A DNA stretch of 64,000 bases from Candidatus Eiseniibacteriota bacterium (GCA_963717505.1 OY970342.1:4032001-4096000); one strand, 5' to 3'. Counted from the stretch's first letter, positions 1 through 25,890 are shown. A program made the numbers and translations. Notes: generated from the letters alone by a model not told the origin.

Positions 1-2318
1 ACCCGGTGCTTGCCCGGCGGCACCACCACCGCACGCAGCAGGTAGTCCGCCTTGAGCACGGGTACTGCCTTGCCGTCCACCGTCGCGGTCCAGTCCGGGT
101 ACCAGGCGTCGGCGAGACGAAGGATCGACTGGCCCGGAGTGTCCACGTCCACGATCACGTCGTTCAGTCCGTAGCGGCTGATGACCGCGGCCCCGCCTTC
201 GGCCGATCCCAGCTCCACCCCCGGATCCTTTTCGAGGAACGTGATCCGGGCCGGATCGGTGGCGCCGGCGCCCACCGAATCCAGGATCGCTCGGGCGGGC
301 GTGACCACTTCGTACTGATCGACGAGCGTGGCGCGCGGCAGCGCCAGCAGGTTCTCGTACACGTTCTGCGAGCCCGAGTATGCGACCCGCAGGTACGGAG
401 GCAGCGGATCCACGTTCTGCCGCGTGACGATGAAGCGGACGTTGAGCAGCCGCTGCCAGTCGGGGTTCATGATCAGGTTGGCCTCGATCAGGTCCTGAAT
501 CAGCCGCGGCTTGGCGGCGTGAGTGCCGCCCACCGATGCGATCCCGAATCCGGCGAATCGATTGTTCTGGAACTCGTCGAGCGGCAGGATGCGGAACGAT
601 CCGGGCGGCCCGGCCTGCTCGAGGAACTGAACCACGTCGTCCCGCCCGACGTCGAGATTGCGGCGCACCGGATCGCCGAGCACCGGCAACATGAGTTTTC
701 CGCCGATCGGCCACAGCTCGATCAGCACCAGCGCCAGAACCCCGATGCTGGCGATGCCGGCCGCCAGTCGCCCGCGCACCACGAGCAGAGCCAGGCCCAC
801 GGCCGCGAGCCCGTAGAAACACGCGCGCGCGAGATCTCCCACCCAGGCGCGGTAGGCCATCTCACCCAGCTCGGCGGTGTAGCCGGCGCCCGCGGCACTG
901 CGGGCCCGGAGCGCGCGGTCGACGTAGCCCGCGCGCCAGACGTCCTGGCGGAGCACGCCGCCGACCAGAATCACCACCAGCGCTCCGCCGAGAATCAGGA
1001 GGACCCGCGAGACGCGCGCCGCTCGTTCCGCTCCGGCGTCCCGGGCATCGAGCACGGCACTCCACCCCCACGCCACACCGAGGGCCGCGGCCAGCTGGAA
1101 CAGCAGGATGATCATCACCGGCACGCGGAACTTGTTGAACAGCGGCAGGTGCTCGTAGAGGAACCCGTAGAGCGGGAAGTAGCGGCCGAAGGAAATGACC
1201 AGCGCGACCGAAGCCAGCGCGACCGCGAAGCCACGCCGCCAGCCGGTGGCGAACCAGGCGAGCGGCGCCAGCAGCACGGCGACCATGCCGACGAAGGCGT
1301 TCGGATAGTCGGTGAACGGCATGCCGCCCCAGTAGGTCGCGCCGCCGAAGCCGACCCAGCCGGGCACGACGATCGCGGGCAGCTCGTAGGGCGCCATCGA
1401 CCAGCCGGTGGCGTACTCCATCCCGACGCCACCGCCGGCGCCGCCGCCGCGAATCGACCACTGCGCGTAGTCGCGCAGCGGCAGGTTGTAGAAGCCGGCG
1501 ATCCCGAAGGCGAACGCGGCCGCGCCGACGATCGCGACCGCGCGCACCGCACGCGTGGGCAGGGGTGCCGGCTCACGACCGGACTCCGGGGCGCGCAACG
1601 CCGCTGCGATCACGTCGACCATCGCGTAGAGCCCGACCGCCATCCAGGTGTAGAAGCAGATCTGGACGTGGCCGCGCAGCATCTGGAAGCCGCCGGCGAG
1701 CGCCAGCCAGCCGAGGTCGGTCCAGTTTCCCACGCGCGCATCCAGCGGGACGCGAGCCAGACCATGAGCGGCAGGTAGGCGGAGTTCACGAGCTGGCTGC
1801 CGTGTCCGTGCGAGCCGACCGCCACCAGGTTGGGCACGAACACGAACACGACGCCGGCGAGCAGCGCGCCCTCGGGTCGCGCGCCCCACTCGCGCGCCAG
1901 CAGGAACATGAACACTCCGCCGAGGAAGTAGTAGAGCAGCATCCAGGTCAGCTCGGGCAGCGGCAGCGACCTTCTGGAGCGATGCGCCACCGGCCAGTCG
2001 GGCGGGTAGATGAGCGGGTTGTACGCGCCGCTCGCGAACGACGGCATGCCGAGGAACACGTACGGGATTCCACAGCGGGTAGACGTGATCGTCGTAGAGC
2101 GACTGCTCGCCGATTCGGACGAACCCCGCGGGTGCCGTGGTGTCGGGCGAGACGAAGGTCTTGCCGCCGAGCACGACCTCGTGGAAGAAGATGACGACCA
2201 GCAACGCGAGGATGCCCGCGGCCCACGCGGTGCTCAGCGAGAAGCCGCGCCGGCTCGGGGCCGTTGCTCCGGTGGCGCTCTTGGCGCCGGACCGCTTCCC
2301 GGACTTGCGCTCGCTCAT
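1..2318 (-). CDS. YfhO-family (GT-C type) membrane glycosyltransferase; 3' end runs off the window; frameshifted around 1560-2070
   Basis: ATG at 2318 (MSERKSGKRSGAK...). Fragments contain FLGMPSFASGAYNPLIYPPDW and GSHGHGSQLVNSAYLP. The minus frame at the window edge reads VLKADYLLRAVVVPPGKHR, the typical YfhO C-terminal motif. Confidence 0.8.
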   Translation of the reverse strand, partial: MSERKSGKRSGAKSATGATAPSRRGFSLSTAWAAGILALLVVIFFHEVVLGGKTFVSPDTTAPAGFVRIGEQSLYDDHVYPLWNPVRVPRHAVVRERRVQPAHLPARLAGGASLQKVAAAARADLDAALLLPRRSVHVPAGARVGRATRGRAARRRRVRVRAQPGGGRLARTRQPARELRLPAAHGLARVPLDARVGNWTDLGWLALAGGFQMLRGHVQICFYTWMAVGLYAMVDVIAAALRAPESGREPAPLPTRAVRAVAIVGAAAFAFGIAGFYNLPLRDYAQWSIRGGGAGGGVGMEYATGWSMAPYELPAIVVPGWVGFGGATYWGGMPFTDYPNAFVGMVAVLLAPLAWFATGWRRGFAVALASVALVISFGRYFPLYGFLYEHLPLFNKFRVPVMIILLFQLAAALGVAWGWSAVLDARDAGAERAARVSRVLLILGGALVVILVGGVLRQDVWRAGYVDRALRARSAAGAGYTAELGEMAYRAWVGDLARACFYGLAAVGLALLVVRGRLAAGIASIGVLALVLIELWPIGGKLMLPVLGDPVRRNLDVGRDDVVQFLEQAGPPGSFRILPLDEFQNNRFAGFGIASVGGTHAAKPRLIQDLIEANLIMNPDWQRLLNVRFIVTRQNVDPLPPYLRVAYSGSQNVYENLLALPRATLVDQYEVVTPARAILDSVGAGATDPARITFLEKDPGVELGSAEGGAAVISRYGLNDVIVDVDTPGQSILRLADAWYPDWTATVDGKAVPVLKADYLLRAVVVPPGKHR

Positions 2319-2340
2319 CCCAGGCTCCAGCGCTCGCGGT

Positions 2341-3502
2341 TCACGCGGCGAGCCGCTCTTCGATCTCCGCGACCATGCGCGCCGCCAGCACCGACCAGTC
2401 GTGCGGCCGAGCCAGCGCGCGACAGCGTTCCGCGAGTTCGGCAGCCGCCGCCGAATCCCGGCGCGCGGCGAGTGCGGCGGCGACCGCGGCGGCCATTCCC
2501 GACGGGTCGGTGGCGAACGCCAGGGCCGGCGGATCCGGGGTCAGGTCGAGAATCGGCGTCGTGACCACCGGAATGCCGGCGGCCAGGTACTGGTAGACCT
2601 TGTTGGGATTGATACCCATCACGTACGGATCGCGCGCGCGAAACGGAATCACACCGACATCGAACGCCTGCATCACGGCGGGCACCTGGTCGTAGGGCAC
2701 GGCACCCAGCACGCGCACGCCGTCACGCCGAGCGAACTCGGCGAGCGCCCTGGCGGTCGCGGGCGTGCCGGGACCGACCAACACCAGGACGCCGTCGCCG
2801 CGGGCGCGCCGCAGGGCCTCGAGGGTTTCGAAGTCGAGGAAGTGCGACAGCAGCCCGAGGTAGCCGATCCGCGGGCGCGGCAGGTCGCGCAGCCGGTCGG
2901 GCTCGGGGACCGGGCGCGCGAAGTGCTCCCACTCGACTCCGTTTCCGAGCAGGACCAGCGGCCGGTCGGTCTCGCGGCTCAATTCGCGGCGGTAGTGCTC
3001 GGAGACCACGAAGAACAGGTCGACCTGGTCGCGGGTGCGCTGCCAGTACTCGCGGGCCCAGGACGGCGAGGTCGAGAACTGAAACGGGGAGTCATTGAAG
3101 TCGTAGAATACACGCCGGGCCGAGAGCCCGCGAAAGCGCGCGGGCGGCATAGATGTTCGACGCGAGCACCACCGGTGCCTGCTCGACCCCGAGTCGCTGC
3201 AGCATGCGCCGCAGGTGCGCTCGGCCGCGGCGCCCTCGATCAGGGATCGCGCCCGCGCCGGTCGCGGTCATCGCGTTGTAGAGCGGATTCCGGGTGCCGG
3301 GCTTCAGGAACGGCACCGTGAAGTAGGTGACGTTGCCCTCGCGTCGCGGCGTCCACGGATCACCTCGGCGTCCGCCCGGCGGCTGGGCGAAGAACACGCG
3401 CCAGCGCTCGGGGAAGCGCGACAGCAGGAACTGCTTGCGCGTGCGGAAGTATCCCCAGCGCACTTCGGACAGGACGAGCAGGTCCATGTGCGGGCGGGTC
3501 AC
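2341..3502 (-). CDS. GT-B glycosyltransferase (TuaH-like GT4), frameshifted
   Basis: N-part MDLLVLSEVRWGYFRTRKQFLLSRF (ORF 3092-3502). C-part LLGNGVEWEHF, IGYLGLL and NPNKVYQYLAAGIPVVTT (ORF 2341-3150). Confidence 0.85.
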
Positions 3503-3633
3503 GCGATCGCCGTCATCACCCGTGAGATCGGCGGCACGCCTACGCGGCGGTCACGCCCGCAGGAGTCGCGTTCGCACGGCCCGGCCAGCGTCGCGGCCGC
3601 GCGGTCGGCGCCGGCACCCGCAAGCCGCGCCGC

Positions 3634-5623
3634 TCACCCCGGATCCCCGCCGAGGAAGTGCCGCGCCCAGGCCTCGAGCGACAGCCAGCGCCAGACCTGG
3701 AGCCCGATCGGCGCGCCGGCCGTCGAGGTAGTCCTCGAGTTCGTCGCGCAGCGCCGCGGGGTCGACCCACTCGTGCAGCGGCCCGTAGAACAGCAGGCGC
3801 CGCCGCACCTCGCCCGCGTAGCGACCGCGCAGCCAGAGGTCGGTCGGCGTCTCGAACCCCATCTTGTCGCGGCGCGCGAGCATCGCGCGGCGGCACGCGA
3901 TCGGCGAGCGCGCGGCGCAGCGATCACCTTGGTGGTGCCGCCGTCCAGCTTCTGATCGTCGGGCAGCGAGAACACGAACTCGACCAGCCGATAGTCGAGG
4001 AACGGCAGCCGGGTCTCGATCGAGAACGCCATGCTGTTGCGATCCTCGTAGCGCAGCAGCGACGGCAGCAGACGTTGGAGCGTGTCGAAGGCGAGCTGGC
4101 GCTGGAGCCCGGTCGCGAAGCGGGGATCGGGGCGCGGCGGCGACGGTCGGCTCAGCCGACCGGAGCGCAACGCCGGGCCGAGCACGCGGTCCTTGCCCTG
4201 GCCGAAGTGCCGGCGCAGGCCCGCCACCAAGGGCGGCGGCAGCCACGGCTCGAACGTGAGCGCGAGCGTGGTCGTGAGCCCGAGCCGCGCGGCACCGCGC
4301 CGAGCAGCGCGGCGAACGCTCCCAGCTTGCCGTCGATCAGGTGGTCGCGCAGCCGCATCGGCAGGTAGCGGAAGTAGCCGGCCAGCGTCTCGTCGCCGCC
4401 CTGGCCGTCGAGCAGCACCTTGAGCCCGGCGCGTTGCGCGAGCTCCATCACCTGCCACTGGGAATAGAGCGCCGGGACCGGCGGTGGGCTCGTCCTGCGC
4501 CACCGCCAGGCGGTCGAACACGCCCCAGAAGTCGTCGCCGTCGCGGCACGACACGTGCGAGACGGCGCCGCTCGCCTCGCACACGTCGCTTCACGTATGG
4601 CCGCTCGTCGTAGTCGGGTCCTTCGTCGTAGGCGCAGGTGAACGCGTGGATCGGCTGGCTCGATCTGGCGAGCGGCCGTGGTCACCACCGCGCTCGAGTC
4701 GATGCCGCCCGACAGGCACGAACCAACCTCGACGTCGGCGCGCAGCCGGATGCGGACCGCGTCGGTGAACAGGCGCTCGAATTCGCGCGTCCACTCCTCG
4801 GGGTCGCCGTGAGCGCGGCGTGCGGGATCGAGACTCCACCAGCGTCGATCCGAACGCCGTCGCTCGGCCAACGTCAGCGAGTGTCCCGCCGGCAGCTGCT
4901 CGACACCCTCGAAGAACGTGGACGTCTCGTGGTCCACCCAGTCGAGCGCGAGCAGGTCGCGCACCGCCTCGAGACGCGGCGCGGATGCGGAAGCTCCTGG
5001 GTCAGGACCAGCGCCCGCGGCTCGGATGCGAACGCGAAGTTGCGACCGTCCCACTGGTAGTAGAACGGCTTGACGCCGAAGCGGTCGCGGGCGCAGAACA
5101 GCTCGCGGCGTGCGCGCGTCCCACAGCGCGAACGCGAACATGCCGTTCAGGCGACCGAGGCAGCTCGCGCCCCCACGCGCCGCCACGCCGCGAGCATCAC
5201 CTCGGTGTCGGTGCCGCTCTGGAAACGGTCGCCCAGCGCCTTCGAGCTCCGCGCGCAGCTCGACGTGGTTGTAGATCTCGCCGTTGTAGGTGATCCAACA
5301 GGTGGCGTCGGCGTCGCACATCGGCCCGTGGCCGGCGGCACTCAGGTCCACGATCGCCAGCCGGCGATTGACGAAGCCGAGCCGCAGCGGACGCGTGCCG
5401 GGATCGCCGTGCCGGCGTCCGGGGGCATACGGCAGGGAGCTGGCGAGCACTGCGTCCGGGGTGTCCGGCCCGCCGAGGGTGATGAAGTCGCCGGTCTCCG
5501 GCGTCGAGCAACACGATGCCCTCGTCGTCCGGTCCGCGGTGACGCAGCAGTCGACGCCATGCGGCGCAGCCGGTCCAGATCCGCTCGGCCTTCGGCCCGC
5601 AGCACCCCCGCGATTCCGCACAT
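3634..5623 (-). CDS. asnB: Asparagine synthase (glutamine-hydrolysing)-like amidotransferase, several frameshifts
   Basis: Ntn start MCGIAG; RRLAIVDLS; YNGEIYNHVELR; LNGMFAFALWD; SCLSGGIDSS; LDGQGGDE; LLRYEDRNSMAFSIETRLPFLD, spread over several frames. Confidence 0.9.
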
Positions 5624-5648
5624 CGGTGGATCGTCCTCCTGTCGTCGA

Positions 5649-7117
5649 CTAGCTCGGCCGCGGCCCCGTGCCCGGAACCGGCGCCGGTGCGGCCACTCCC
5701 GGCGCGATCGCGCCGGCGTCCCGATGAACTTTGAACACGATGCAGCCGGCGGCGAACGCGACCGCGATCGCCAGCTTCATCGCGGTGCCGAGAATTCCGG
5801 GCGGCGCCAGTCGCTGCGCGACGAACGCGAGCCCGAGCCCGACCGACACCAGCACCACCGCGCGTCCTCCCCGCAACGGCAACGGGTGCACGCGCTGGGC
5901 GACACCGTACGTCACGATCGCGGTCGCCGCATAGGCGGCGAAGGTCGCGAACGCCGCGCCCGGGGCGCCGAAGCGGGGCGTGAACGCGAACTGAGCCACG
6001 AGCGCAACGATCGCACCGATTCCCGCGCACCAGGCGAGCAGTGGCGTGCGCAGCGCCAGCCCGATCCCGAGCGAGGCGACAGTGTAGGCGCCGAACGCCA
6101 CGGCGGCAAAGCATAGCCACACCGCGGGCAGTGCTGCCGCCGCGTAGCGTGAGGGCACCAGGAACGCCAGCGCTTCGGGCGCGAAGGCGGCGACCACCAG
6201 CGCGCCCAGGGTCGCCACCGCCAGGTAGCCGAGGAACACGCGCGCGTAGAGCCGCGGCGCCTCGGGCGTCTCGGCGCGCGCGAACGCGAACGGCCCATAC
6301 GCCAGCTGGAAAGCCGAGGCCGCCAGCGACACGACCGCGAAGCACTTGAGCGCCACCGCGTAGATCGCGACTTCCTCCAGCGATTGCGTCCGTTGCAGGA
6401 CGAAGCGGTCGAGACCGGCGATCACCGCGAAGCCGAAGGCGGCCGGAACCGCCGGGATGCCGTACGAGAGCATGCGCGCGAGGCTCGCGCGACTGAAGGC
6501 GGGCGCCAGCGAGTGCCGGAGCAACACCAGCGCCAGCACGGTCGAGATCATGTCGCCGAGCAGGCGCCCGTAGAGCACTCCAACCACGCCCGCCTCGCGG
6601 ACCAGGACGAAGTAGAGCGAGAAGCCGGCCACCAGAACGGTCTGGGTCAAGTTGAGCGCGATGTACTTCCAGGGCTGGAATGTCACCCGCAGCACGTCGT
6701 TGCCGAACATCACCAGCAGCGTGAACGGCAGCGTCACCGCGCCGAGCAGCAGGTACTTACGGTAGGCCTCGCCGCTCATGAGCAACCCCGCGAGCGGACC
6801 CGACAGCAACGCGAGGAGGACGGCGAGCCCCGTGCTGGTCGCGAGGCGGAAGGCGAGTGACGACGACACCATGCGCACGCGCGCCTCGCGATCCGGCTCC
6901 TGATAGAAGAAGCGCGCGAGTGCGCCGTCCATGCCATGACCATCACCAGCAGCACGGTCTGCGAGTAACCGACCACCAGCTCGCTGACGCCGAACGCCTC
7001 GGGCGTCAGCGCCCGGGTGAGCACCGGCACCAGCAGCAGCTGGACCGCGCGTCCACCGACCTGGCCGAGTCCGTAGACCACCGACTCCGCGGTCAGCCGC
7101 CGCAGCGCTTCACGCAT
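5649..7117 (-). CDS. Wzx/MOP-family oligosaccharide flippase, one frameshift near 6935
   Basis: MREALRRLTAESVVYGLGQVGGRAVQLLLVPVLTRALTPEAFG, then a multi-TM 427-aa ORF with LDRFVLQ...EVAIYAVA. Confidence 0.85.
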
Positions 7118-7952
7118 GCCGGGTGGAACGCGGCCGGCCGAAAGCGTTTTCGCGCCCGCACCACGGGCATCGCCAGCGGTCCGGCCAGGGTGCCGCGGCG
7201 TCCACGATGCTGTGCTCGCCGCACTCACGGCACACGTGCGTGACCTGTCTGAGCCCGCGCACGCCGGTGCGGCGCAGGTGCAGGACGTAGTTCGCGTCGC
7301 GCGCGAGATCCAGCCCGAACGCCCGATGCAGCCAGGCGAGCGCGTCGGTGAACGGGTCCTGGAGCGGCTTGGTGCGCGCGTCGTTCATCCACGAGAACCC
7401 GGCCGGAACGCGCGCATGGGCGACCAGCTCCATGCCGCGCGCCTGGAACAGATCGAGGAGCTTCTGCAGATCGAAGCGCTGTTGGTGCTCGATGCGCTTG
7501 CCGAACTTGCCGAGCGCGTACTTGGCGAAGTAGCCGGCGAAGCGATAGAGCCGGTCGTCGAACGACGCCGAGCGCGGCACCGACAGATAGAGAGCGCCCC
7601 CGTGCCGGGTGACGCGCACCAGCTCGTCGCAGCAGGCCTCGAGTTCGGTGACGTGCTCGAGCACGTAGTGGCACACGGTGAGGTCGAAGGCGGCGTCGCG
7701 GAGCGGCAGCCGCGCCAGGTCGCCCCGGAACACGCGCACGTGTGCCGCCGGCGCCGGCGGGCCCGGCGGGAACTTGACGTCGAATCCGGTGATCGGGAGA
7801 TCGCTCCGCCGCGCGTACGGCCACGAACCGGGTCCGCAGCCGGCGTCGAGCACGCGCGCCCCGGGCGGCAGCGCGTCGATCATCTCGTAGAGAAAGAGCG
7901 GCGCTTCGTCTTCGGCGCGCACCGGTTTCCGCCCGTCGACGGATCGGCTCAC
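7110..7952 (-). CDS. Class I SAM-dependent methyltransferase with C-terminal Zn-ribbon-like motif
   Basis: VLDAGCGPG motif I; LPLRDAAFDLTVCHYVLEHV; C-terminal CRECG...RCPWCG. GTG start overlaps the upstream stop. Confidence 0.85.
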   Translation of the reverse strand: MSRSVDGRKPVRAEDEAPLFLYEMIDALPPGARVLDAGCGPGSWPYARRSDLPITGFDVKFPPGPPAPAAHVRVFRGDLARLPLRDAAFDLTVCHYVLEHVTELEACCDELVRVTRHGGALYLSVPRSASFDDRLYRFAGYFAKYALGKFGKRIEHQQRFDLQKLLDLFQARGMELVAHARVPAGFSWMNDARTKPLQDPFTDALAWLHRAFGLDLARDANYVLHLRRTGVRGLRQVTHVCRECGEHSIVDAAAPWPDRWRCPWCGRENAFGRPRSTRHA

Positions 7953-11728: not shown

Positions 11729-11744
11729 CGGTGCCGTCCGCGCC

Positions 11745-12778: not shown

Positions 12779-13468
12779 GCCGCGAACTCCCGCTCCGCCC
12801 GCTCCCACTCCTCCGGCGTGCCGATGTCGAAGAACACGCCCGTCGCAGCGATGCCCGGCCAGGAGCCCCTCGGCGGCGAGCTCGCGGCAGCACGTCGCGC
12901 TCGAGCGACGATGCTCCCTCCGGCAGCCGGCGCCACAGCGCCGGCGCGAACGCGTAGAGGCCGCCGTTCACCCACGCCGGGCCGCGGAAGTCTTCGTCCT
13001 TCTCGACGAAGCGGCGATCCGGTCGTCTGCGCCCAGCTCGACGCGCCCGCGCGACCGGGCATCGTCGACGCGGAACAGTGCGACCGCGCCGAGGGCGCCC
13101 GATTCCCAGCGCGCGCGCTCGAGCGCCCACGGGTCGCACCCGGGCAGCGTGTCGCCGTTGACCACCAGCGCCGGACCGTCGACGTGCGCAGCGGCGAGCC
13201 GCAGGGCGCCGCCGGTGCCGAGCGGCTCGGATTCGATCGAGTAGTGAAGCTTCACGCCCGAGGCCCGCCGTCGCCGAGCGCCGCGCGCACCTGCTCGGCC
13301 CCGTGCCCGACGCACAGCACCGCCTCACGGATGCCACGCGACGGCGAGCCATTCGAGCAGCCGCGCCAGAAACGGCCGGCCGCCGAGCGGCGCCAGCGGC
13401 TTCGGCAGTTCGCCGAAGCGCGGGCGCAGCCGCGTGCCCAGACCGCCCGCGAGCACGAAGGCCTTCAC
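12775..13468 (-). CDS. hddC: Sugar-1-phosphate nucleotidyltransferase, HddC-like, frameshifted
   Basis: [24 protein letters not shown]; ESEPLGTGGALR; VVNGDT; VNGGLY; FFDIGTPEE. Adjacent to the HddA-like kinase. Confidence 0.75.
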
Positions 13469-14424
13469 TGCGTCTCCGAGTCGAGGTTGAACCGACGCCG
13501 CACCGGGTAGTCGGCACGCGCGCCGAGGTGGGCGATCATCTCGCCCGAGCAGCCCCATGAGCGACGAACTGGATGCCGACCAGGACGAGTCCGGCGCCGA
13601 ACAGCATGAGCGGCCGCACGCGGAGCGGCTCGCCGCGCACGCACTGGCCGACGAAGAACACGCCGAGCAGCATGCCGAACACCAGGAACAGCGAGCCCGA
13701 TGCGCCCGAACACATGCAGCGGCTTGAGCGCTGAGGTCGAGATGAACGCGGCCGCCATCAGGTCGAGGAAGCCGTTGACGAAACGCGCCGCGCCGAACTT
13801 GCTGTGGCCGAAGCGGCGCGCGCGATGGTGGACCGGCACCTCGCCGACGCGGAACCCGCGCCAGTGCGCGAGCGCCGGCAGGAAGCGATGCAGCTCGCCG
13901 TAGACCTCGATCGACTCGACCACCTCGCGGCGGTAGAGCTTGAGGCCGCAGTTGAAGTCGTGGAGCCGGACGCCGGCGACCATCGAGGTCACGGCGTTGA
14001 ACAGCCGCGACGGCACGCGTCTTGGTGATCGGGTCCTTGCGGTTCTGCTTCCAGCCCGAGACCAGGTCCAGCCCGCACTCGAGCGCCGCGATCAGTCGCG
14101 GCAGCTCGGCCGGGTCGTCCTGCAGGTCGGCGTCGAGCGTGACCACGTAGTCGCCGCGCACCAGTCGGAACGCCGATCGCCAGGGCCGCGGACTTGCCGA
14201 AGTTGCGTCGCAGCGACGACGCCACGCACCCGCGGGTCGCCGGACGTCAGGCGCTCGAGCACCTCGTCGGTGCCGTCGCGCGAGCCGTCATCGACGTAGA
14301 GGATCTCCCAGGATCGGCCAAGCGCTTCGAGCGCCGCGACCAGCTCGCGGTGCAGCTCGGGCAGGCTCTCGGCCTCGTTGTAGGCGGGCACCACGGCCGA
14401 GATCGACGGCCGGACCGCCGTCAA
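13465..14424 (-). CDS. GT2 polyprenol-phosphate glycosyltransferase (DPM1/ArnC/GtrB-like), frameshifted
   Basis: [65 protein letters not shown], and two C-terminal TM helices. Confidence 0.88.
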
Positions 14425-15401
14425 CGCGCTCGTACCCGCGCTCCGTACAGCTCGCGCGCCCACTCGGCCTCGGCGCGCGAGCCCGTCGCTCGATCGGGGT
14501 GGTCGGCGTCGAAGCCGAGATCGCGTCCGATCCGGGTCGCGTCGGCGCGGGTGCGCAGCGGATCGCCGGGCGGGCGCGGCTGGAAGTCGAGCTTCGCACT
14601 CACGCCGATCAGCGCGTTCGAGCGATGCGGATCGCCTCGAGCACCTCGACCTGCGATCCGCCGCCGACGTTGTAGACCCCCTGCGGCGCGCTTCGGCGTC
14701 CAGGCGCGCACGTTGGCCTCGACCGCGTCGGCGATGAACGTGAAGTCGCGCGACTGCCGGCCGTCGCCGTAGACGGTGATCGGCTCGCCCGCGCAGCAGC
14801 GCGCGGCAGAAGCGATGAAACGCCATGTCCGGACGCTGGCGCGGGCCGTAGACGGTGAAGTAGCGCAGCGCGGCCACCGGCAGGCCGAAGTTGCGCCCGT
14901 AGAGCAGCGTCAGGTGCTCGCCGGCGAGCTTGGTGACGCCGTAGGGCGAGAACGGCCGCGGCAGCAGGTCCTCGTCGGTCGGGTATCGCTCGGCGTCGCC
15001 GTACACCGAGGACGACGACGCGTAGACGAAGCGCTCGAGCGGACGTCCGCGATACCGCTCGAGCAGCCGCTGGGTCGCGAGCACGTTGTGATGCGTGTAG
15101 TGCGCGAACTCGGCGCCCCACGAGGCGCGCACGCCCGGCTGCGCCGCCTGGTGGAACACGACGTCGACGTCGGGCAGCGCCGCCGAGGTCGTGACGGCCC
15201 AGGTCCAGCTCGAGCAGCGTGAACGCCGGGTGACGCGAGCGCGCCCTCGAGGTTGCGCCGCTTGAGCGCCGGGATCGTAGTAGTCGGTGAAGCAGTCGAC
15301 ACCGGTGACCCGCGTCGCCGCGCGCCAGCAGGCGCTCGCGAGCGTGCGAGCCGATGAAGCCGGCGCGCCGGTGACCAGCGCGTGCGAGTCGGTCGCGTCA
15401 T
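14421..15401 (-). CDS. NAD-dependent epimerase/dehydratase (UDP-glucuronate/UDP-glucose 4-epimerase-like), frameshifted
   Basis: HALVTGA; [10 protein letters not shown]; [13 protein letters not shown]; YASSSSVYG; SPYGVTK (YxxxK); [17 protein letters not shown]. Confidence 0.88.
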
Positions 15402-18172
15402 GCCTGGCGCCGTCGGCGTCCGTTCCGCGCGGCCGCGGCCGCGCGCGTCGGGCGGGCAGCCGAGTCGGTGCGGCGCCGGCTCGGCAGCCCCATGCCCTGG
15501 CGCTGCTGCTCCAGCATGGCGCGGGCCTGTGCGTCCTCGGGATGGCGGCGCACCCAGCGTTCGAGGTAGGTGAGCGCGCGCTCCGGCTCGTCCGATCTCG
15601 CTCAGCGCGTAGTAGGCCGCGTAGTAGGCCATCGTGTAACTCGGGATCCAGACGCGATCGACGTCCTCGAGCTCGCCAGCGCCGCGTCGACCTGCCCCTG
15701 ATAGGACAGCAGGACGCCGTAGTAGTAGCGCGCCTCCGGGTCGCGCGGATTGCGCTTCGCGATCTGTCTCGAACAGCGCCAGCGCCCGCGCCGTGTCGCC
15801 GCGCTCCATGTAGAAGCTGCCGAGCGGCACCAGCATCTCGGCGAAGTCCGGGAACATGCGCGCGACCCGCTCCATCTCGGAGATCGCGCGGTCCAGCTGC
15901 CCGAGCTGTGCGGTAGTAGAACGCGAGCTGCAGGTGGGCGGCGGCGTAGTTGCGCGACAGCGTGGCGGCGTTCTCGTCCTTGTAGACACGGTCGAGTCCC
16001 AGCTGCCGTCCGGCAGGAACAGGCCGCGATACTGGAACGTCTCGTACAGCGCCTTGCTGGTCAGTGGCTCGTTCACCACGACCTGCGACGGAGTCGGTGT
16101 TCACCTGGTAGCACCAGGCCCTCGAGCGAGAAGTACGGGTCGAGCCCCATGTGCTCGGGCACCGTGACCGCGAAGTAGGGCTGCTTGATCCAGCTGCCGT
16201 CGGGCTTGCGGTTCTCGCCCATGATGTGGCCGACCATGAAGTGGTTGGTGTAGATGAAATTGCCCGCGCTGTCGCGAATCGCGCCGGCTCCGAGCAGGTC
16301 GACCGTCCGGTCGTCGAGCGGTCGATCGGCACCTTGGGCTCCTCGTCGCGCAGCTGGCGGATGTACCAGTCGGTGTTGAGCAGGCTCAGGTTCACGACGC
16401 GCACGTCCTTGCGGAAGCCCTCGACCTGCTGCATGTACCAGAGCGGGAAGGTGTCGTTGTCGCCGTTGGTGAAGATGAACGAGTTGGGCGTCGAGCGGCG
16501 CCAGCATGTTGTAGGCGTAGTCGCGCGCCACGTAGTTGCCGCGGCGATCGTGCGTGTACCACAGGTTGCGCATCAGCAGGAACGGCATGCGCCAGCAGGG
16601 CGGCTCCGGCCAGGATCGTGACCCAGCGCCGGGACCCTGCCGGGCTTGAACGAATCGCGCACCCACGCGATCAGCCACGCCACGCCCAGCCCGATCCACA
16701 GATCGAGAATGCGTGGTAGCCGCTCTGGAAGAAGTAGTCGCGCTCTCGGACCTCATGATCGGTGAAGTTGAGGAAGACGATCATCCCGGCCGTGGTCAGG
16801 CCGAGGAAGCTCCCCGTGTACAGGAAGACTCGTGCCGTTGCGGCGCGCGAGCCAGGCGCCGCCGAGAATCCCGAGCAGCAGCGGAGCAGGATCGCACCCC
16901 AGCGCGTCGGGTCGGGGAACACCGGCCACTGGCGCCGGAAGTAGCGCCAGAACTCCTTGTTGAGCTGGCCGTCGAGCGATCCGCGACGCTCGAACATGTT
17001 CATCTCGCCGTACTGCTTGCGCTCGAGCAGGTCGCGCAGGCTGTTCCAGGTGGCGGGCGCGCCCTCGTTGATCGCCGGGTCGCTGCGCGGCGCGGATCGG
17101 CAGGTAGACGTGGGTCGAGTAGCCGGCGCACCATCAGGACCAGCGCCAGCGCGATGATCCGGCCCTCGCGATGGCGCCAGGCGAGGAAGGTCAGCGGCAC
17201 CAGGACGCCCAACAGCGCGAGCAGCGCCGTGCCCCAACCGAAGCTGGCATCGCCGAACGCCGTGCGGAGGGGCACGAGCACCGCCGCAACCCCTCCCCAT
17301 GCGACCACCGCCGGAATCTTCTTCTGCGCCCCGTAGACCAGGAACACCAGGGTCGACAAGACCATGATGCCGCCGGCCATGCGTTCGAGGCCCATGGTGA
17401 CCAGCAGCACCGACAGGAGCGGCATCAGGAACACGAGGGCCGCGCGGCGGTCGACCAAGGCGATCAGCAGCAGCAGCGGTATTCCCATGATGCCGACGCC
17501 GAGATGGAGACCGACGCACAGCCACATCACGTACACGGCGAGCAAAAGCGGACCGGCGGTCGGCGTGCGCTCGTGTTCCTCCCACCAGCGCAGTCCGAGC
17601 CAGAGCACCAGCGTCTGAGCGCAGCTGGCGAGGGCATAGACCTCGGCTTCGATCGAGTTCTCCCAGTAGGAGTCCGAGAACGCCAGCATCAGCGCTCCGA
17701 CGATCGCGCCCACGTGGGTCACGATGTGCTTCCACGTGTCGGGGTCCGCGGGGACGGCCGGGCCTGCGACCGGCGGCTCCGATCCTTCCGCATAGCCGCG
17801 CCGGGCCACCGCCTTCCAGCGATCCTTCGGATCCTGACCCGGAGCCTCGAGCCCGGCGAACGCCAGGCGGATCAGCTTGACCAGGGTCAGGTAGGTCAGC
17901 ATCACCGCCAATGCGGCCGGGATCGCCGACAGCGCGTTGACCCGTTCGGCCACCGTGTGCCACGGAATCAGGGTCGCCACGCGCCCGAGGATCACGTAGA
18001 ACGGAGTCCCGGGCGGATGAGGAATTCCGAGGATGTAGGAGACGCCGATGAACTCGCCCGCGTCCCAGAACGGGACGGTCGGGTAGAGGGTGATCAGGTA
18101 GACGGTCACGGCGACGATGAAGACCAACAGCGCCAGCAGTTGCGTGGGGCGCTTCGACCCCCAATCGATCAC
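15398..18172 (-). CDS. DUF2723 / TMEM260-like GT-C membrane protein with C-terminal TPR-like region; frameshifted below about 17120
   Basis: [32 protein letters not shown]; [15 protein letters not shown]; ERDYFF; [41 protein letters not shown]; helical repeats ([18 protein letters not shown]). 3' end approximate. Confidence 0.85.
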
Positions 18173-19215
18173 GTGGACCTCCGAAACGACGCCGCCTGGA
18201 ACTTGCGCCGGGGGATGCGAGCCACGACGACAAGTCCGCCGAGCAGGCTCACGACCACCGCCACCAGGTAGGTGGTGATTTGCAGCGAGAACGCCGGCGC
18301 TCGCGCGACCCCGACCAAACCGAACAACATCACCCCCGCACCTTCACGAACCCCGATGCCGTTGAGCGAGATGGGCAGCGAGACTATCACCGCCAGCAGC
18401 GGAACGAAAAGAAAGAAGTAGGTCACGGGCACCGTCAAGCCCAGTGCGCGCGACACCAGGACGTGCACGCAGACGCGCGCGACCTGAACCACGATCGCGA
18501 TCATCAGCAGACCGAGGAACATCTGGCGGCGGCCGGCGAACTCCCGGAGACGCGTGGTGAAATCCTCCAGATGCGGGCTCAGGCGAGACAAACCGAGCCG
18601 CGCGAGCAGCCGTTCGATCCGCGGCAGGGAACGAGGATGGAACACGGCCCAGACCATGCCGACGCTCAGGGCGAAGAACACGACCACCGCCCCATATGCA
18701 ACGGACAGGTGAAATCGGTCGATGGCCGGGACGGTCGTCACCAGGGCCAGCCCGGCGAGGGCCACGGTCCCGATCAACCGATCCATCAGCACCGTGGCCG
18801 CGGCGGTGCCGCGGCTCGGTCCGTAGCGCGAGGCGTCGAGCACGCGTGCGATGTCGCCGCCGATGTTCGCCGGCAGGAAGTTGTTGAAGAACAAACCGAC
18901 ATGATAGTAGCCGCACACTTTCCAGAACGGGATTTCGATCGACGCCGCGCGCAACAGGCGCTGCCACTGCCAGGCGCCGAGCACGTTGCTGCCCAGCATG
19001 AGTCCGAGCGCCGCGACCAGCCATTCCTTGCGCGCACCGAGGATCGCAGCGCGCACTTCGTCGAGAGGGATGCGCAGGACCAGGAAGGTCATGAGGCCGA
19101 TCGACAACGCGACCTTGGCCGCGAGCATCCACCAGCCGTGGGACTTGGACTCGGGTCGCGGCTCGGGTGCTCCGGCCCCCGGCCCGTTCGCGGTGGTGTG
19201 TTCGGGCGGCGTCAC
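18169..19215 (-). CDS. Lysylphosphatidylglycerol-synthase TM domain / UPF0104 (AglD2-like) putative flippase
   Basis: AKVALSIGLM; GLFFNNFLPANIGGDIAR; TVLMDRLIG; SLPISLNGIGVREG. Confidence 0.88.
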   Translation of the reverse strand: MTPPEHTTANGPGAGAPEPRPESKSHGWWMLAAKVALSIGLMTFLVLRIPLDEVRAAILGARKEWLVAALGLMLGSNVLGAWQWQRLLRAASIEIPFWKVCGYYHVGLFFNNFLPANIGGDIARVLDASRYGPSRGTAAATVLMDRLIGTVALAGLALVTTVPAIDRFHLSVAYGAVVVFFALSVGMVWAVFHPRSLPRIERLLARLGLSRLSPHLEDFTTRLREFAGRRQMFLGLLMIAIVVQVARVCVHVLVSRALGLTVPVTYFFLFVPLLAVIVSLPISLNGIGVREGAGVMLFGLVGVARAPAFSLQITTYLVAVVVSLLGGLVVVARIPRRKFQAASFRRST

Positions 19216-20342
19216 GCGCTCGCCTCCGCCGCGGGGGCGCCGATCAACGCGTCGAGCGAACGCCGCGCGCAGTCCCGCCAGGTGAAGCGCGCCGCCCATC
19301 GCACGCCGGCTTCGGCCAGTCGCGTGCGCAAGCCATCGTCCTCGAGCACGCGGACCAGCGCGCCGGCCAGTGCCGAATCGTCGCCGAATGGCACCAGGAG
19401 ACCGGTCTCGTCGCGGCGCACCGAATCCCTCAGACCCGGGCTGTCGGCGGCAACCACCGCCGTGCCGCAGGCTCCGGCTTCGACCACCGTCAGACCCCAA
19501 CCCTCCTTCGGCGAAGGCTGGACCAGCACCCACGACGCGCGCATCCGCCGTGCCTTCTCGATCCCGGGAACGAATCCCAGGAACGACACCGCGTGGGCCG
19601 CGCCACTGCGCTCGAGCTCGGCCGCGAGCCGCTGGCGATCGGGACCGTCGCCGAGCACCACCAGGCGCGCCGACTTCAGTCGTTCGAGGATTCGTGGCAT
19701 CGCGCGAATCACCCAGTCGACGCCTTTGTACCGGCGGAGGCGCCCGACGTAGAGGATGGTCGGCTCGGACTCCTTGGGCGTGCCATCGAGCTTGAAGGTG
19801 TCGTGGTCGAGCCCGCAATGGACGACGTCGATCCGCTCGCGCGCGATGCCGCGCGCCACCAGGTCGTCGCGCGTGCTCTCCGAGATGACCAGGAAGCGCG
19901 ATCGCCGGTAGCACCAGGGGATCAGCGCCTCGAGCAGCAGAACGTAGAGCGCGACCGGCAGCGATGCCTCGCGAAACGCGGTGGTGCCGAACAGGTGCGG
20001 CACGATGGCGCCGACTCGCGCGCGCGTCCACCAGGGGGTGAAGCATGGCACCTTGTTGATGTCCTCGATCACCAGATCGGGGGCGGGGCTCGAGAACTCG
20101 CGGCGGAGCACCGCCGGAACGATCAGATTGAAGTTCCACCACGCGCCACGGCGCACCACCCGGATGCCGCTGTGCTCGGCCTCGGCCGCCGCCCCGGGAA
20201 ACCCCGAGGCGAGCCAGGTGACCCGGTGGCCGCGCCGCACCGCTTCGAGCAGGATTTCCTCGAGGTGGAGCTCGGCGCCGCCCGCTTCGGGATGCCCGGG
20301 ATCGCGAAAGTTCACCGCGAGCAGGTCGAGCGGTCTTGTCAT
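19212..20342 (-). CDS. GT4 family glycosyltransferase
   Basis: NFRDPGHPEAGGAELHL; EDINKVP; YVGRLRRYKGVD; PSPKEGWGLTVVEAGACGT. Confidence 0.92.
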   Translation of the reverse strand: MTRPLDLLAVNFRDPGHPEAGGAELHLEEILLEAVRRGHRVTWLASGFPGAAAEAEHSGIRVVRRGAWWNFNLIVPAVLRREFSSPAPDLVIEDINKVPCFTPWWTRARVGAIVPHLFGTTAFREASLPVALYVLLLEALIPWCYRRSRFLVISESTRDDLVARGIARERIDVVHCGLDHDTFKLDGTPKESEPTILYVGRLRRYKGVDWVIRAMPRILERLKSARLVVLGDGPDRQRLAAELERSGAAHAVSFLGFVPGIEKARRMRASWVLVQPSPKEGWGLTVVEAGACGTAVVAADSPGLRDSVRRDETGLLVPFGDDSALAGALVRVLEDDGLRTRLAEAGVRWAARFTWRDCARRSLDALIGAPAAEASA

Positions 20343-21118
20343 GGCTTCTCGCCGACCGTCCCGATGACGTGGCAGGTGTAGAGCGCGAGCCGATGGCGGG
20401 CGAGCCCGGCGCGCAGCGACTCCCAGCCCCGCTCCCACCACGACGGACCTCGCGGGTGGAGCGGCAATCGCGCGCCGAAGCCGCGCTTCAGGAGTTCGCG
20501 CGCCACCCGATAGCCGAGCCCGGGCACCATCCACTCGCCGTAGGTGCGGCGCACCGCGAGCCCCGCCTCGCGCATCAGGCGCTCGAGCCCGGCCGGAGTG
20601 AACTGGGTCTCCCAGCCGGCGAACCAGCGGTTCATCGCGATCAGCGCCTGCTTCATCGCGGTGTACGGATGAACCGTCTGCGGCACGTCGACGATCACCC
20701 GGCCTCCGCGCCGGGTGACCCGGACGTTTTCGCGCAGCAGCGGGCGTGGATCGCGAAAGTGCTCGAGCAACCCCTGGTGGAACACGACGTCGAACGTGCC
20801 GTCGCGAAACGGCAGCGCCAGCGCGTCCGCGCGGACCAGATGCACCGCGAGTCCCGCCTCGCGCGCCAGCCGGCGGACGATGTCGAGCGAGGCCGGCGAA
20901 TAGTCGAGCACGACGGCGATCGCGCCATCGCGCGCCAGCTCGAGCGTGTCGCGGCCCGATCCCGCGCCGACTTCCATCACCCACCGGCCGGCGACCGCGC
21001 CTTCGCGCCGGACTTCGCGCGCGAGACGGCCTCCGGTCGAATAGGTGTCCTCGATCTGCGGGTTGCCGCGCCAGTAGGACTCCCAGTGCTCGCGCGTCGA
21101 GGCGCGCTCGCCGCTCAT
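20339..21118 (-). CDS. Class I SAM-dependent methyltransferase
   Basis: VMEVGAGSG; ADALALPFRDGTFDVVFHQGLLEHF. Confidence 0.88.
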   Translation of the reverse strand: MSGERASTREHWESYWRGNPQIEDTYSTGGRLAREVRREGAVAGRWVMEVGAGSGRDTLELARDGAIAVVLDYSPASLDIVRRLAREAGLAVHLVRADALALPFRDGTFDVVFHQGLLEHFRDPRPLLRENVRVTRRGGRVIVDVPQTVHPYTAMKQALIAMNRWFAGWETQFTPAGLERLMREAGLAVRRTYGEWMVPGLGYRVARELLKRGFGARLPLHPRGPSWWERGWESLRAGLARHRLALYTCHVIGTVGEKP

Positions 21119-21837: not shown

Positions 21838-22256
21838 GCCTTGAACTCCTCGGGGCGCAGGTTGCGGGCGATGCGATCGAGCACGCCGTTGACGAATCGG
21901 GCCGAGTCCTCGCTGCCAAAGCGGCGCGCGATGTCGATGGCCTCGTCGAGCACGACCCGCGCCGGCGTGCCGGCGCGCTCGCTCAGCTCGGCCGATGCCG
22001 CGCGCAACACCGCGCGGTCGGTCGCCGACATGCGATCGATCGGCCAGTGCTCGGCTGCAGCCGCGATGCGCGCGTCGACCGCCGCCGGGTCGCGCGCCAG
22101 GGCGGCGACGATGTCGTCGACCAGCGCCTGGGGGTCCTCGCCCAGCGGCTCCTCGTCGCGCAGCCGCCGCCACACGACTTCGACCGCGTCGCGATTGGCG
22201 TCGGCCTCGTAGGCCACGCGGAACGCCAGCTCGCGCGCCCGCCGACGCGCGGTCAA
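21834..22256 (-). CDS. nusB: Transcription antitermination factor NusB
   Basis: RRRARELAF; HWPIDRMSATDRAVLR; VVLDEAIDIARRFG.EDSARFVNGVLD. Follows ribH. Confidence 0.95.
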   Translation of the reverse strand: MTARRRARELAFRVAYEADANRDAVEVVWRRLRDEEPLGEDPQALVDDIVAALARDPAAVDARIAAAAEHWPIDRMSATDRAVLRAASAELSERAGTPARVVLDEAIDIARRFGSEDSARFVNGVLDRIARNLRPEEFKA

Positions 22257-24638: not shown

Positions 24639-24640
24639 GC

Positions 24641-25756: not shown

Positions 25757-25817
25757 TCGGGTCTCGGCTCGGTGCGAGTGCGCGGCACGGGCCGACCGTC
25801 GGCTCCGCGCCGGGGCC

Positions 25818-25848: not shown

Positions 25849-25890
25849 GAAATACGGCAGCGGCGGAACGCACCACGCGCCCGCGGCTTC

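Follow-up and report, generated by a model that had tools for sequence, protein, structure and literature searches.

What does a bacterial relative of human TMEM260, a protein O-mannosyltransferase of IPT domains (PDB 9RQL/9RQM/9RQN), do in the cell envelope? The question is raised by 64,000 nucleotides of DNA from a Candidatus Eiseniibacteriota bacterium (GCA_963717505.1 OY970342.1:4032001-4096000, or G000:C1:4,032,001-4,096,000, in a genome that is a single contig of 4.16 Mb). We will refer to this whole stretch as the window. It carries the greater part of what we read as an envelope-glycosylation locus, which includes a gene for a TMEM260-family glycosyltransferase (GT) of the GT-C class (Pfam family PF11028, or DUF2723). 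We give even odds (a probability of about 0.5) to the view that this enzyme, by analogy with the human protein, works in a self-contained periplasmic module and that its acceptor would most likely be Ser or Thr in exported proteins. A protein acceptor, and hence O-glycosylation, is in itself about an even bet, because the architecture on the acceptor side of the enzyme is common to the only characterized member of the family, human TMEM260.

The window is 70% G+C, so raw lists of open reading frames (ORFs) are unreliable. Genes were called from codon-position GC together with Pfam scans of all stop-to-stop frames of at least 100 amino acids in positions 1–26.5 kb (148 frames). For the protein analyses, we used intact orthologs from relatives in place of the broken copies in the window. 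A contig from one relative (G017) is syntenic with window positions 7,281-26,038 at about 74% nucleotide identity, and its frames are clean. PF11028 matches the 935-amino-acid ortholog from G017 with 127.2 bits and matches the window ORF at 17003-18343 with 129.3 bits, as compared to a cut-off of 24.2 bits. In a phmmer comparison, the intact ortholog is similar to human TMEM260 (9rql; E = 2.1e-17). A search of PDB sequences with a full-length profile was swamped by designed proteins with tetratricopeptide repeats (TPRs), so we used a profile of the N-terminal 620 amino acids of nine orthologs, and human TMEM260 was its sole match (E = 3.2e-25).

Human TMEM260 is described as having a GT-C "wrist," a Rossmann-like "palm," and TPR "fingers," with the TPRs and the palm gripping an extended peptide (10.64898/2026.03.17.711096). 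In that description, the donor is held by D52 and H67 and touched by R264, Y267, and R355, and the base is D441, which lies in the palm. PMC10214176, which mentions bacterial members only as "distant homologs in bacteria," is a second source for what D52, H67, and D441 do. In our alignments, the Asp of FWD[SA]GE falls on D52 and the His of HPPG falls on H67 (TMEM260 residues 50-55 and 67-70), while TNGDND is aligned with LRGDLP, which places its Asp on the catalytic base D441. The equivalents of D52, H67, and D441 are invariant among 25 close homologs and also among 19 homologs down to 28% identity (G564 and D565 included). The DNA of the window retains these motifs across its broken frames: WDAGE (18067) and HPPG (18019) lie in one frame, LPIRA (17103) and the catalytic-Asp motif (16464) in a second, and NEGAP (17069) in a third. 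An earlier reading of this DNA, made by a model from the sequence alone (hereafter the sequence-only reading), had singled out the acidic residues of the WDxGE motif for comparison with TMEM260. These are conserved, and so are the His of HPPG and the Asp equivalent to D441.

The predicted structure has the domain order of TMEM260. In an AlphaFold 2 model of the ortholog (pLDDT 80, pTM 0.76), a membrane core is followed by an alpha/beta domain at 540-750 and TPRs at 757-916. A fold search with this model returned GT-C enzymes: ALG12 (Z 19.7, with 408 residues aligned at a root-mean-square deviation of 4.4), ArnT (19.5), STT3B (18.4), AglB (18.3), PglB (18.2), and Pmt1/2 (17.9). The ortholog matches TPR_14 and TPR_19 at about 2e-13, the repeats at 757-916 match TPR structures with Z of 12-14.5, and the TPR matches in the window itself are at 15750-15905. 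As compared to human TMEM260, the bacterial protein has about 200 extra residues, additional membrane helices, and an alpha/beta domain of greater size.

The family is widespread in bacteria, with 9,384 representatives in a 50%-identity library (E <= 1e-10), a count that the TPR tail may inflate. It is present in all 31 genomes of the order (a count that includes G000, the genome of the window, and one unpublished genome, G020). G000 has two more PF11028 paralogs (G000:C1:3,049,042-3,049,554 and 750,833-751,378), and no gene for a GT2, an epimerase, or a UPF0104 protein lies within 15 kb of either one. As a separate observation, the close orthologs of window 15,437-18,172 all have a precomputed match to PF28495, a newer Pfam family.

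In the assembly, frame changes interrupt about 12 of the genes in the locus, with at least four such changes in the TMEM260-like gene. If these breaks are real, then this copy of the enzyme is inactive, which would weigh against any role for it. We think it very improbable that the locus is decaying and non-functional, with the frame breaks being true mutations. The essential genes ftsW, murE/F, ftsI, and mraY, directly downstream of the locus, are broken in the same way: in the division and cell-wall cluster at G000:C1:4,012,001-4,023,700 (1-11,700 of extract L015), mraZ, rsmH, ftsI, murE, murF, mraY, murD, ftsW, and murG are spread over several frames. The genome's completeness score is just 86.7% despite its being a single contig. 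Read as amino acids, each frame keeps its conserved motifs undamaged. Finally, public sequencing runs give contigs of strains that are near-identical or related, and most of the differences between these contigs and the window are single-base gaps, including at the sites of frame breaks at 17083, 16638/16589, and 15983/15908. (These contigs are short, of low depth, and from related strains; no run had more than 0.16 of the sampled words.) Because the frames of essential genes break too, because motifs are intact across frames, and because the strain contigs differ by single-base gaps, the frame breaks are very probably assembly indels that reflect single-base errors throughout the genome.

How might such an enzyme be supplied with a sugar? 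The TMEM260-like gene lies among these genes (for each, we give the window coordinates and the strand):

21115..21924, minus strand: metallophosphoesterase (YfcE-like); Metallophos_2 5.3e-13; tblastn match to the G017 ortholog at 21831..21118.
20339..21283, minus strand: S-adenosylmethionine (SAM)-dependent methyltransferase MT2; Methyltransf_11 5.8e-22; tblastn 21208..20345 with 65% identity.
19212..20438, minus strand: glycosyltransferase GT4c, packed against the UPF0104 gene; Glycos_transf_1 8.1e-39; tblastn 20423..19236 with 70% identity.
18169..19281, minus strand: UPF0104/MprF-flippase-like membrane protein; LPG_synthase_TM 2.3e-38; ortholog matches TIGR00374 with 46.3 bits (cut-off 43.2).
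15437..18172, minus strand: TMEM260-family GT-C with a DUF2723 membrane domain, a Rossmann-like periplasmic domain, and TPRs; PF11028 1.8e-37.
14430..15390, minus strand: sugar-nucleotide epimerase/dehydratase (GalE-like) of the short-chain dehydrogenase/reductase (SDR) type; Epimerase 4.3e-29, with a C-terminal piece that falls in a different frame; frame change near 14789; ortholog Epimerase 7.7e-57, galE 9e-39, dTDP-glucose dehydratase 7.3e-44.
13471..14421, minus strand: polyprenol-phosphate-type GT2 (ArnC/PgfS/AglJ-like); Glycos_transf_2 split over two ORFs, with an internal frame change; ortholog GT2 5e-32, ArnC 5.5e-57 (193 bits, cut-off 529), PgfS 5.6e-45, AglJ 2.2e-21, all below the equivalog cut-offs.

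The metallophosphoesterase, which ends at about 21,924, is the true first gene of the conserved block and lies one gene upstream of the limit in the sequence-only reading. As had been noticed from the sequence alone, the stop codon of the UPF0104 gene (TGA, 18171-18169) overlaps the start codon of the DUF2723 gene (GTG, 18172-18170), which forms GTGA at 18172-18169. In three relatives (G016, G012, and G015), the tblastn matches of the two proteins abut at the same base. The overlap and its recurrence therefore tie the UPF0104 and TMEM260-like proteins together. Pfam scans of the locus found no small flippase of the GtrA/ArnE-F type; the UPF0104 protein holds that position.

This arrangement is conserved across the phylum. 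We examined 80 loci in contigs from one genome per species, 78 of which have a DUF2723 match that covers at least half of the query. Neighbors were counted only where the flanking sequence suffices:

Epimerase: 64/64 Eisenbacteria loci.
ArnC-like GT2: 59/59 loci.
UPF0104: 68/73 loci.
GT4c: 57/59 loci.
MT2: 53/54 loci.
Phosphoesterase (upstream): 52/53 loci.
NTP-transferase: 57/58 loci.
GHMP kinase: 54/55 loci.
GT4b: 50/51 loci.
546-amino-acid protein: 40/43 loci.
GT2a: 38/38 loci.

In all six relatives whose contigs are long enough, the genes are colinear all the way from the phosphoesterase to mraZ. Colinearity continues to the ends of the contigs in another three (G018, G011, and G027), and G019, from a second family, is largely colinear too. 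Gene order and 50–85% protein identity are retained across genera and families, so the gene-neighborhood survey that the sequence-only reading had called for found conserved synteny.

For more distant homologs, a scan of genome contigs with very specific patterns gave almost only Eisenbacteria orthologs, and we used a metagenome scan for diversity. This gave 78 metagenome loci at 25–55% identity, 60 of which have at least 3 kb of flanking sequence on one side. The entire module (phosphoesterase, MT2, GT4c, UPF0104, enzyme, epimerase, and GT2) is kept in three of the loci at 29–34% identity of the enzyme (L118, L120, and L123), and two others have a rearranged form (L122 and L186). Near the distant DUF2723 homologs at the 60 loci, we found GT4c-like genes at 11, ArnC/DPM1-like GT2s at 13, UPF0104 at seven, and GT2a-like genes at 18; many of the homologs stand alone.

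There is also a second recurrent partnership, apart from the one with the ArnC-like GT2. At 18 of the 60 diverse loci, a GT2a-like GT2 lies about 40–860 nucleotides downstream of the TMEM260-like gene, with L177 as an exception at about 3.5 kb (GT2a-like loci: L129-L141, L149, L151, L153, L161, L179, L183, and L189).

The most economical reading of the module is load, flip, and periplasmic transfer, because the UPF0104 gene overlaps the gene for the enzyme, because an ArnC/PgfS/AglJ-type GT2 lies beside a GalE-like SDR, and because there are published precedents. First, the GalE-like epimerase would provide a nucleotide sugar. Second, at the cytoplasmic face of the membrane, the ArnC/PgfS/AglJ-like GT2 would charge polyprenol phosphate with this sugar, and the GT4 and the methyltransferase that are encoded upstream possibly elaborate the lipid-linked sugar. 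The sugar need not be mannose, because the ArnC-like GT2 is paired with a 4-epimerase. Third, the translationally coupled UPF0104 protein, for which a flippase role is suggested by the literature, would flip the lipid-linked sugar. Fourth, the TMEM260-family GT-C would transfer the sugar, in the periplasm, to a hydroxyl, and most likely to a Ser or Thr in an extended segment of an exported protein. By analogy with human TMEM260, the donor would be positioned by the Asp and His of the first loop (WDxGE...HPPG), the base would be the invariant Asp in FTNGDND of the Rossmann-like domain, and the TPRs would hold the acceptor. The donor would differ from that of the human enzyme in being an undecaprenyl-type phosphate sugar made by the ArnC-like GT2.

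The closest precedents come from archaea and streptococci. In archaea, UPF0104 genes lie beside PMT/STT3-like GT-Cs and AglD-like GT2s, and AglD itself is a fusion of UPF0104 with the GT2; this triad was proposed, from comparative genomics, to act in protein glycosylation (Makarova et al. 2015, PMC5898192). In our locus the GT-C is of a different family, the genes are separate, and UPF0104 is coupled to the GT-C instead of being fused to the GT2. In the Pgf and GtrB/PgtC2 systems of streptococci, a GT2 (PgfS), an epimerase (PgfE), and a GT-C of the YfhO type (PgfM1) O-glycosylate Ser/Thr-rich regions, while YfhO homologs of Bacillus and Listeria act on teichoic acids instead (PMC12041528). Our locus resembles these systems in having a PgfS-like GT2 (5.6e-45), an adjoining SDR of the 4-epimerase type, and an extracytoplasmic GT-C; it also has a YfhO-like GT-C beside a second GT2. 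It differs in that the GT-C next to the PgfS-like GT2 is from the TMEM260 family rather than YfhO, UPF0104 is present, the matches are below the equivalog cut-offs, and the organism is likely diderm.

Two other systems share part of this arrangement. The Arn pathway, which modifies lipid A (ArnA/ArnC/ArnE-F/ArnT), also combines an SDR, a flippase-type protein, and a GT-C; ArnC is the best NCBIfam match of our GT2, and ArnT is among the closest folds to our enzyme. However, the locus lacks ArnB, ArnD, ArnE, and ArnF, the ArnC score of 193 bits is far below the cut-off of 529, and the GT-C is from another family and has Rossmann-like and TPR domains that are absent from ArnT. TfpW of Pseudomonas aeruginosa, which we liken to our enzyme by architecture and not by sequence, is a GT-C whose C-terminal TPR domain is periplasmic and that is needed for the O-glycosylation of pilin (10.1101/2020.04.19.049825). 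The tfpW gene adjoins pilA, whereas we found pilin-like ORFs near only two of the 60 diverse DUF2723 loci; this was determined with a crude motif for the pilin signal, and it neither supports nor excludes a link to pilins.

The sequence-only reading had proposed a periplasmic assembly line for protein glycosylation. The triad of GT2, flippase-like protein, and GT-C, together with the conserved residues and the archaeal precedent, agrees with this proposal. A protein is one candidate for the acceptor: the genes past the window start (for a PorZ-like propeller, a FemAB/VimA-like acyltransferase, two GT4s, and a fourth GT-C-like protein), taken with Wzx and the AsnB-like gene, would fit a surface lipoglycan or an anchor glycan of type IX secretion equally well. 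That the other GT-Cs extend a protein-linked sugar is a suggestion for which we found no support.

Besides the frame changes discussed above, several observations weigh against transfer to proteins. First, among the titles and abstract openings listed for DUF2723 and for TMEM260 with bacteria, we found no paper devoted to a bacterial homolog and no known acceptor. Second, in our fold search, GT-Cs that act on proteins (oligosaccharyltransferase, PMT, and DPY19) and GT-Cs that act on lipids or glycans (ArnT, ALG12, and AftB) lie within about 4 Z units of each other and are not separable. The libraries that were searched lack the TMEM260 structure, and the fold comparison is to other GT-Cs only. 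Third, the residues R264, Y267, and R355 that contact the donor in TMEM260 are outside of the phmmer and profile alignments; R346, R471, and R473 of the bacterial protein are invariant, with an equivalence that is not assignable. Fourth, the surrounding genes resemble those for the assembly of a glycolipid or a polysaccharide (Wzx, six soluble GTs, AsnB-, FemAB-, and PorZ-like proteins, and three other GT-C-like proteins). Fifth, a GT4 is likewise combined with a UPF0104 protein in gpgSDF, a glycolipid operon (PMC12713373).

The distribution of IPT domains, the substrate of the human enzyme, is a further point against. G000 has 66 matches to TIG/IPT, in tandem arrays in giant proteins, several of which end in a type IX secretion system (T9SS) sorting domain of the FlgD_ig type. 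The arrays lie at these positions:

G000:C1 ~3,497,900-3,523,700
524,600-527,500
626,500-629,300
646,000-649,500
3,268,900-3,276,200
3,455,800-3,459,400

TIG domains are present in only 19 of 31 relatives (G020 included), all of which carry the enzyme, and arrays are abundant in G000 and G007. We found no TIG domain in G012, G013, or G017, all of which carry the locus; G012 and G013 are nearly closed (nine and 10 contigs, respectively), and more generally, short-read metagenome-assembled genomes may under-assemble repeat proteins. The strict published sequon of human TMEM260, searched as a regular expression, fits none of the 66 TIG domains of G000, which share only the general pattern of the fold (P-x6-P-xxGP-xG[TS]-x-V-T). 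IPT domains are not the conserved acceptor. This makes IPT specificity less likely and does not affect membership in the family. The analogy to IPT domains that was implicit in the sequence-only reading thus fails as a conserved feature, and we dropped the abundance of TIG domains as a clue to the substrate, given that G017 has none and only 19 of 31 relatives have any.

The secreted beta-rich proteins elsewhere in the window had also been suggested as substrates. Window positions 26–64 kb contain housekeeping genes, two proteins with FlgD_ig-type C-terminal domains (CTDs), a Spondin_N protein, and an ankyrin-repeat protein. The candidates are ordinary proteins with CTDs of the T9SS type, and nothing ties them to the locus. 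As an observation in its own right, the two FlgD_ig-CTD proteins, the Spondin_N protein (7.5e-44), and the ankyrin-repeat protein are encoded side by side (54,625-57,733 and 58,614-61,206), and both the Spondin_N domain and ankyrin repeats are more familiar from eukaryotes.

What does the remainder of the locus make? The locus comprises 23 genes in about 30 kb, of which window positions 1-21,924 (minus strand) are the upstream two thirds, and every member of the Eisenbacteria that we looked at has it. It runs from G000:C1 ~4,053,924 down to 4,023,789, between ribH-nusB and mraZ, with nusB and riboflavin genes upstream and, downstream, mraZ and then the division and cell-wall cluster. By mapping proteins of G017 and G008 onto the window's own genome with tblastn, we found that the locus continues for about 8.2 kb past the window start and terminates at mraZ. 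It encodes four GT-C-like proteins, two polyprenol-phosphate-type GT2s, six soluble GTs, two flippase-type proteins, tailoring enzymes, and a PorZ-like propeller. Within the window are three soluble GT4s and one soluble GT2, and the tailoring and sugar genes there are two methyltransferases, an AsnB-like amidotransferase, an SDR epimerase, a GHMP kinase, and an NTP-transferase. The sequence-only reading had described a co-directional locus, and we found every component that it listed. The remaining genes are as follows:

12778..13534, minus strand: sugar-1-phosphate nucleotidyltransferase (ManC/HddC-like); NTP_transf_3, with frame changes; ortholog NTP_transferase 6.5e-22, mannose-1-P guanylyltransferase 3.6e-34, HddC 4e-24.
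11745..12777, minus strand: GHMP sugar kinase (HddA-like); GHMP_kinases_N and _C in separate frames; ortholog HddA 9e-93 (311 bits, cut-off 600).
10538..11710, minus strand: glycosyltransferase GT4b; Glyco_trans_1_4 3.6e-12 (ortholog 3.1e-26); tblastn pieces in three frames, with two frame changes.
8854..10604, minus strand: candidate GT-C of 546 amino acids (PMT/ArnT/RgtA-like); no Pfam match in the window ORF; frame change near 9850.
7949..8986, minus strand: glycosyltransferase GT2a, soluble type; Glycos_transf_2 5.2e-15; tblastn 8986..7961 with 71% identity in one frame.
7110..7940, minus strand: SAM-dependent methyltransferase MT1; Methyltransf_23 4.3e-13; tblastn 7865..7275 with 80% identity.
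5649..7117, minus strand: flippase of the Wzx (MOP) type; Polysacc_synt_3 5.1e-10; ortholog Polysacc_synt 2e-14; frame change at ~6935, with tblastn pieces in two frames.
3490..5623, minus strand: glutamine amidotransferase (AsnB/WbpS-like); GATase_7 and Asn_synthase on two ORFs, with at least two frame changes; ortholog is a single ORF with asn_synth_AEB 3e-124 and a match to the XrtA amidotransferase model (6.5e-116) that is below its cut-off.
2341..3487, minus strand: glycosyltransferase GT4a; Glyco_trans_1_4 1.2e-12; N-terminal half in ORF 3095-3550, with a frame change at ~3127; one ORF of about 375 amino acids in G008, G013, and G016; TuaH-like (2.1e-21).
1..2318, minus strand, extending about 135–150 nucleotides beyond the window start: YfhO-like GT-C of about 820 amino acids; YfhO 8.4e-4; compensating frame changes near 1980 and 1620.
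Beyond the window start, adjoining the YfhO-like gene: DPM1/PpgS/AglJ-like GT2 of 238 amino acids; PpgS 2.3e-18 and AglJ 8e-18.
G000:C1:4,028,799-4,031,144 (window -3201 to -856): PorZ-like protein of 786 amino acids; Reg_prop repeats (propeller); T9SS sorting domain at the C terminus.
Beyond the window start, after the PorZ-like gene: FemAB/VimA-like acyltransferase (GNAT, Acetyltransf_6; Pfam).
Beyond the window start, after the FemAB-like gene: two further GT4s (Pfam scan of the extension).
Last gene before mraZ: fourth GT-C-like protein, a membrane protein of 522 amino acids; weak AftB match (2.6e-6), with RgtA-D/PMT_2-like neighbors in the Atlas.

Two of these had been named as GT-C enzymes in the sequence-only reading. 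The YfhO-like protein is one by its predicted fold. Its ortholog in G008 is 823 amino acids in a single frame, matches PF09586 (1.5e-6) with 27.3 bits as compared to a cut-off of 28.5 and over the C-terminal 75 residues only, and matches the PgfM1 model at 3.6e-4. A search of PDB sequences gave no useful match. A structural model (pLDDT 67.6) is most similar to AftD (Z 18.9, with 565 residues aligned), AglB (16.3), and STT3B (15.6), and the top 19 rows are all GT-C enzymes. As for the 546-amino-acid protein, a membrane protein is present as stated, with weaker backing for the label of PMT/ArnT-like: its orthologs have weak matches to GT22 (3e-4), Pfam PMT (0.0087), and the NCBIfam LA_3751/2 family (6e-9), and among its Atlas neighbors, 10–44% of members carry PMT_2 or PMT.

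With a Wzx-type flippase, several GT4s and GT2s, nucleotide-sugar genes, and methyltransferases, the locus has much that is typical of strain-variable, Wzx/Wzy-dependent O-antigen or exopolysaccharide clusters, in which case the GT-Cs would be Gtr-like decorators of side branches. We consider this improbable. Pfam scans of the window found no Wzy_C, Wzz, Wza/Wzc, or Bac_transf, as the sequence-only reading had observed by eye for Wzy, Wzz, WaaL, and Wza/Wzc. That reading had left the adjacent DNA as a place where wzy or waaL might lie; in Pfam scans of the whole locus, including the extension to mraZ, there was no Wzy_C, WaaL, priming transferase (Bac_transf), Wzz, or export protein, at a sensitivity that could miss a divergent polymerase among the membrane proteins. 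The three Wzy_C and four Bac_transf matches of the genome are all elsewhere, clustered at about 1.98–2.00 Mb and 3.26–3.28 Mb. Furthermore, O-antigen loci usually vary between strains, whereas this one keeps its gene order and its protein similarity across genera and families. The earlier view that this is not an O-antigen cluster thus fits both the gene content and the phylum-wide conservation.

If load, flip, and transfer is the correct view of the TMEM260-like module, then the rest of the locus would make a second flipped glycan, with periplasmic decorations, that is somehow linked to type IX secretion. Its genes would be those for HddA/HddC-like activation, Wzx, five more soluble GTs, the AsnB-like and FemAB-like proteins, the DPM1-like GT2, three GT-C-like proteins, and the PorZ-like protein. 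The PorZ-like gene is colinear in every relative whose contig extends that far. It has Reg_prop repeats and Por_Secre_tail, is similar by phmmer to double-propeller sensor domains (1.3e-21) and to the structure of PorZ (5m11; 9.6e-12), and is the best PorZ match in the genome. The PorZ model (NF052228) scores 100.9 bits for the ortholog and 76.7 bits in the window's own genome, as compared to a cut-off of 260, and covers profile positions of about 593-742. Elsewhere in the genome are:

G000:C1:2,957,688-2,961,162: PorU-like gene for a T9SS sortase, split into three or more pieces.
G000:C1:2,400,064-2,401,320: SprA_N match.

Together with 126 matches to FlgD_ig-type CTDs, these genes indicate, on the basis of sequence similarity, that the genome encodes a T9SS with a large set of cargo proteins. 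The organism is most likely diderm, because T9SS genes are present.

The link to T9SS suggests another reading, which is that the whole locus makes a conserved surface lipoglycan, either anchored as a glycolipid or serving as the anchor glycan of the T9SS. This is a real possibility, if somewhat short of an even chance. A lipid-linked core would be assembled by the GT4s on the cytoplasmic side of the membrane and flipped by UPF0104 and Wzx. In the periplasm, the four GT-C-like enzymes (including the TMEM260-like one) would then lengthen or decorate this core with what the two GT2s produce, presumably much as in the assembly of mycobacterial lipomannan and lipoarabinomannan. The AsnB-like and FemAB/VimA-like proteins would provide an amidated and aminoacylated sugar, and the PorZ-like protein would hand the glycan to the PorU-like sortase as an anchor for T9SS cargo. 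A locus with two flippase-type proteins, two GT2s, four GT-C-like proteins, and six soluble GTs, and without a priming phosphoglycosyltransferase, Wzy, or WaaL, is consistent with this. So are the similarities to AftB (522-amino-acid protein) and AftD (the best match of the YfhO-like model), and the PorZ-like protein in a genome with PorU-like and SprA_N genes and abundant CTDs. GT4c-like genes also lie by the distant DUF2723 homologs at 11 of 60 loci. In Porphyromonas gingivalis, WbpS (AsnB-like) and VimA-related genes make the linking sugar of the T9SS, and PorZ is in the attachment complex (PMC7468200). The P. gingivalis pathway for A-LPS (Wbp-Vim) resembles our locus in its AsnB/WbpS-like and FemAB/VimA-like proteins, GT4s, Wzx, PorZ-like double propeller, and T9SS genes. 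However, all of the matches here are below the specific cut-offs, and no WbpA/B/D/E-type genes were seen in the locus. The porZ gene of P. gingivalis is not known to lie within its glycan locus.

Several results argue against a lipoglycan as the acceptor. The TMEM260-like enzyme has, besides its GT-C core, an acceptor-side Rossmann-like domain, a catalytic Asp, and TPRs, as does the human protein transferase. The two paralogs stand alone without such partners, and an acceptor made by the locus does not explain the whole family. The PorZ match is far under its cut-off and is mainly to the C-terminal part, and the AsnB-like and FemAB-like matches are below the specific family cut-offs. As to the glycolipid operon of P. 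aeruginosa, gpgSDF similarly has a GT4 followed by a UPF0104 flippase-like protein (PMC12713373), but our locus has no deacetylase, it has a GT-C and a polyprenol-phosphate GT2 attached, and its GT4s match the GlcNAc-PG synthase model weakly (1e-9 to 4e-15, with a cut-off of 480 bits).

A broader version of protein glycosylation, which we regard as unlikely, is a general pathway that uses lipid-monophosphate sugars. In this pathway of the Eisenbacteria, the TMEM260-type enzyme would prime Ser/Thr residues of exported proteins, T9SS cargo among them, with a sugar that the ArnC-like GT2 loads and UPF0104 flips; the other GT-Cs would extend the glycan from another lipid-linked donor; and the PorZ-like protein would couple it to the attachment of cargo. 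If so, this would be a bacterial counterpart of the O-mannosylation that takes place within the eukaryotic endoplasmic reticulum and of the archaeal Agl routes, and human TMEM260 would be a descendant or a sibling of an ancient and widespread bacterial enzyme for protein glycosylation.

That the family is related to TMEM260 was already known, as Pfam and some of the source annotations name it after the human protein. New here are the full extent of the locus, its phylum-wide conservation, the invariant catalytic Asp of the palm, the link to a PorZ-like protein and the T9SS, and the negative result for IPT domains. The locus is a favorable place to find the role of the family: the module for supplying the donor is conserved across the phylum, residues that proved essential in human TMEM260 are invariant, and clean orthologs are available for expression. 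Human TMEM260 is mutated in a congenital glycosylation disorder, and if the acceptor of the bacterial enzyme is a protein, then the locus would represent a new bacterial system for O-glycosylation and an evolutionary root of an enzyme involved in human disease. A lipoglycan acceptor that is tied to PorZ would instead make the locus the first view of the way in which cargo of the T9SS is anchored outside of the Bacteroidota.

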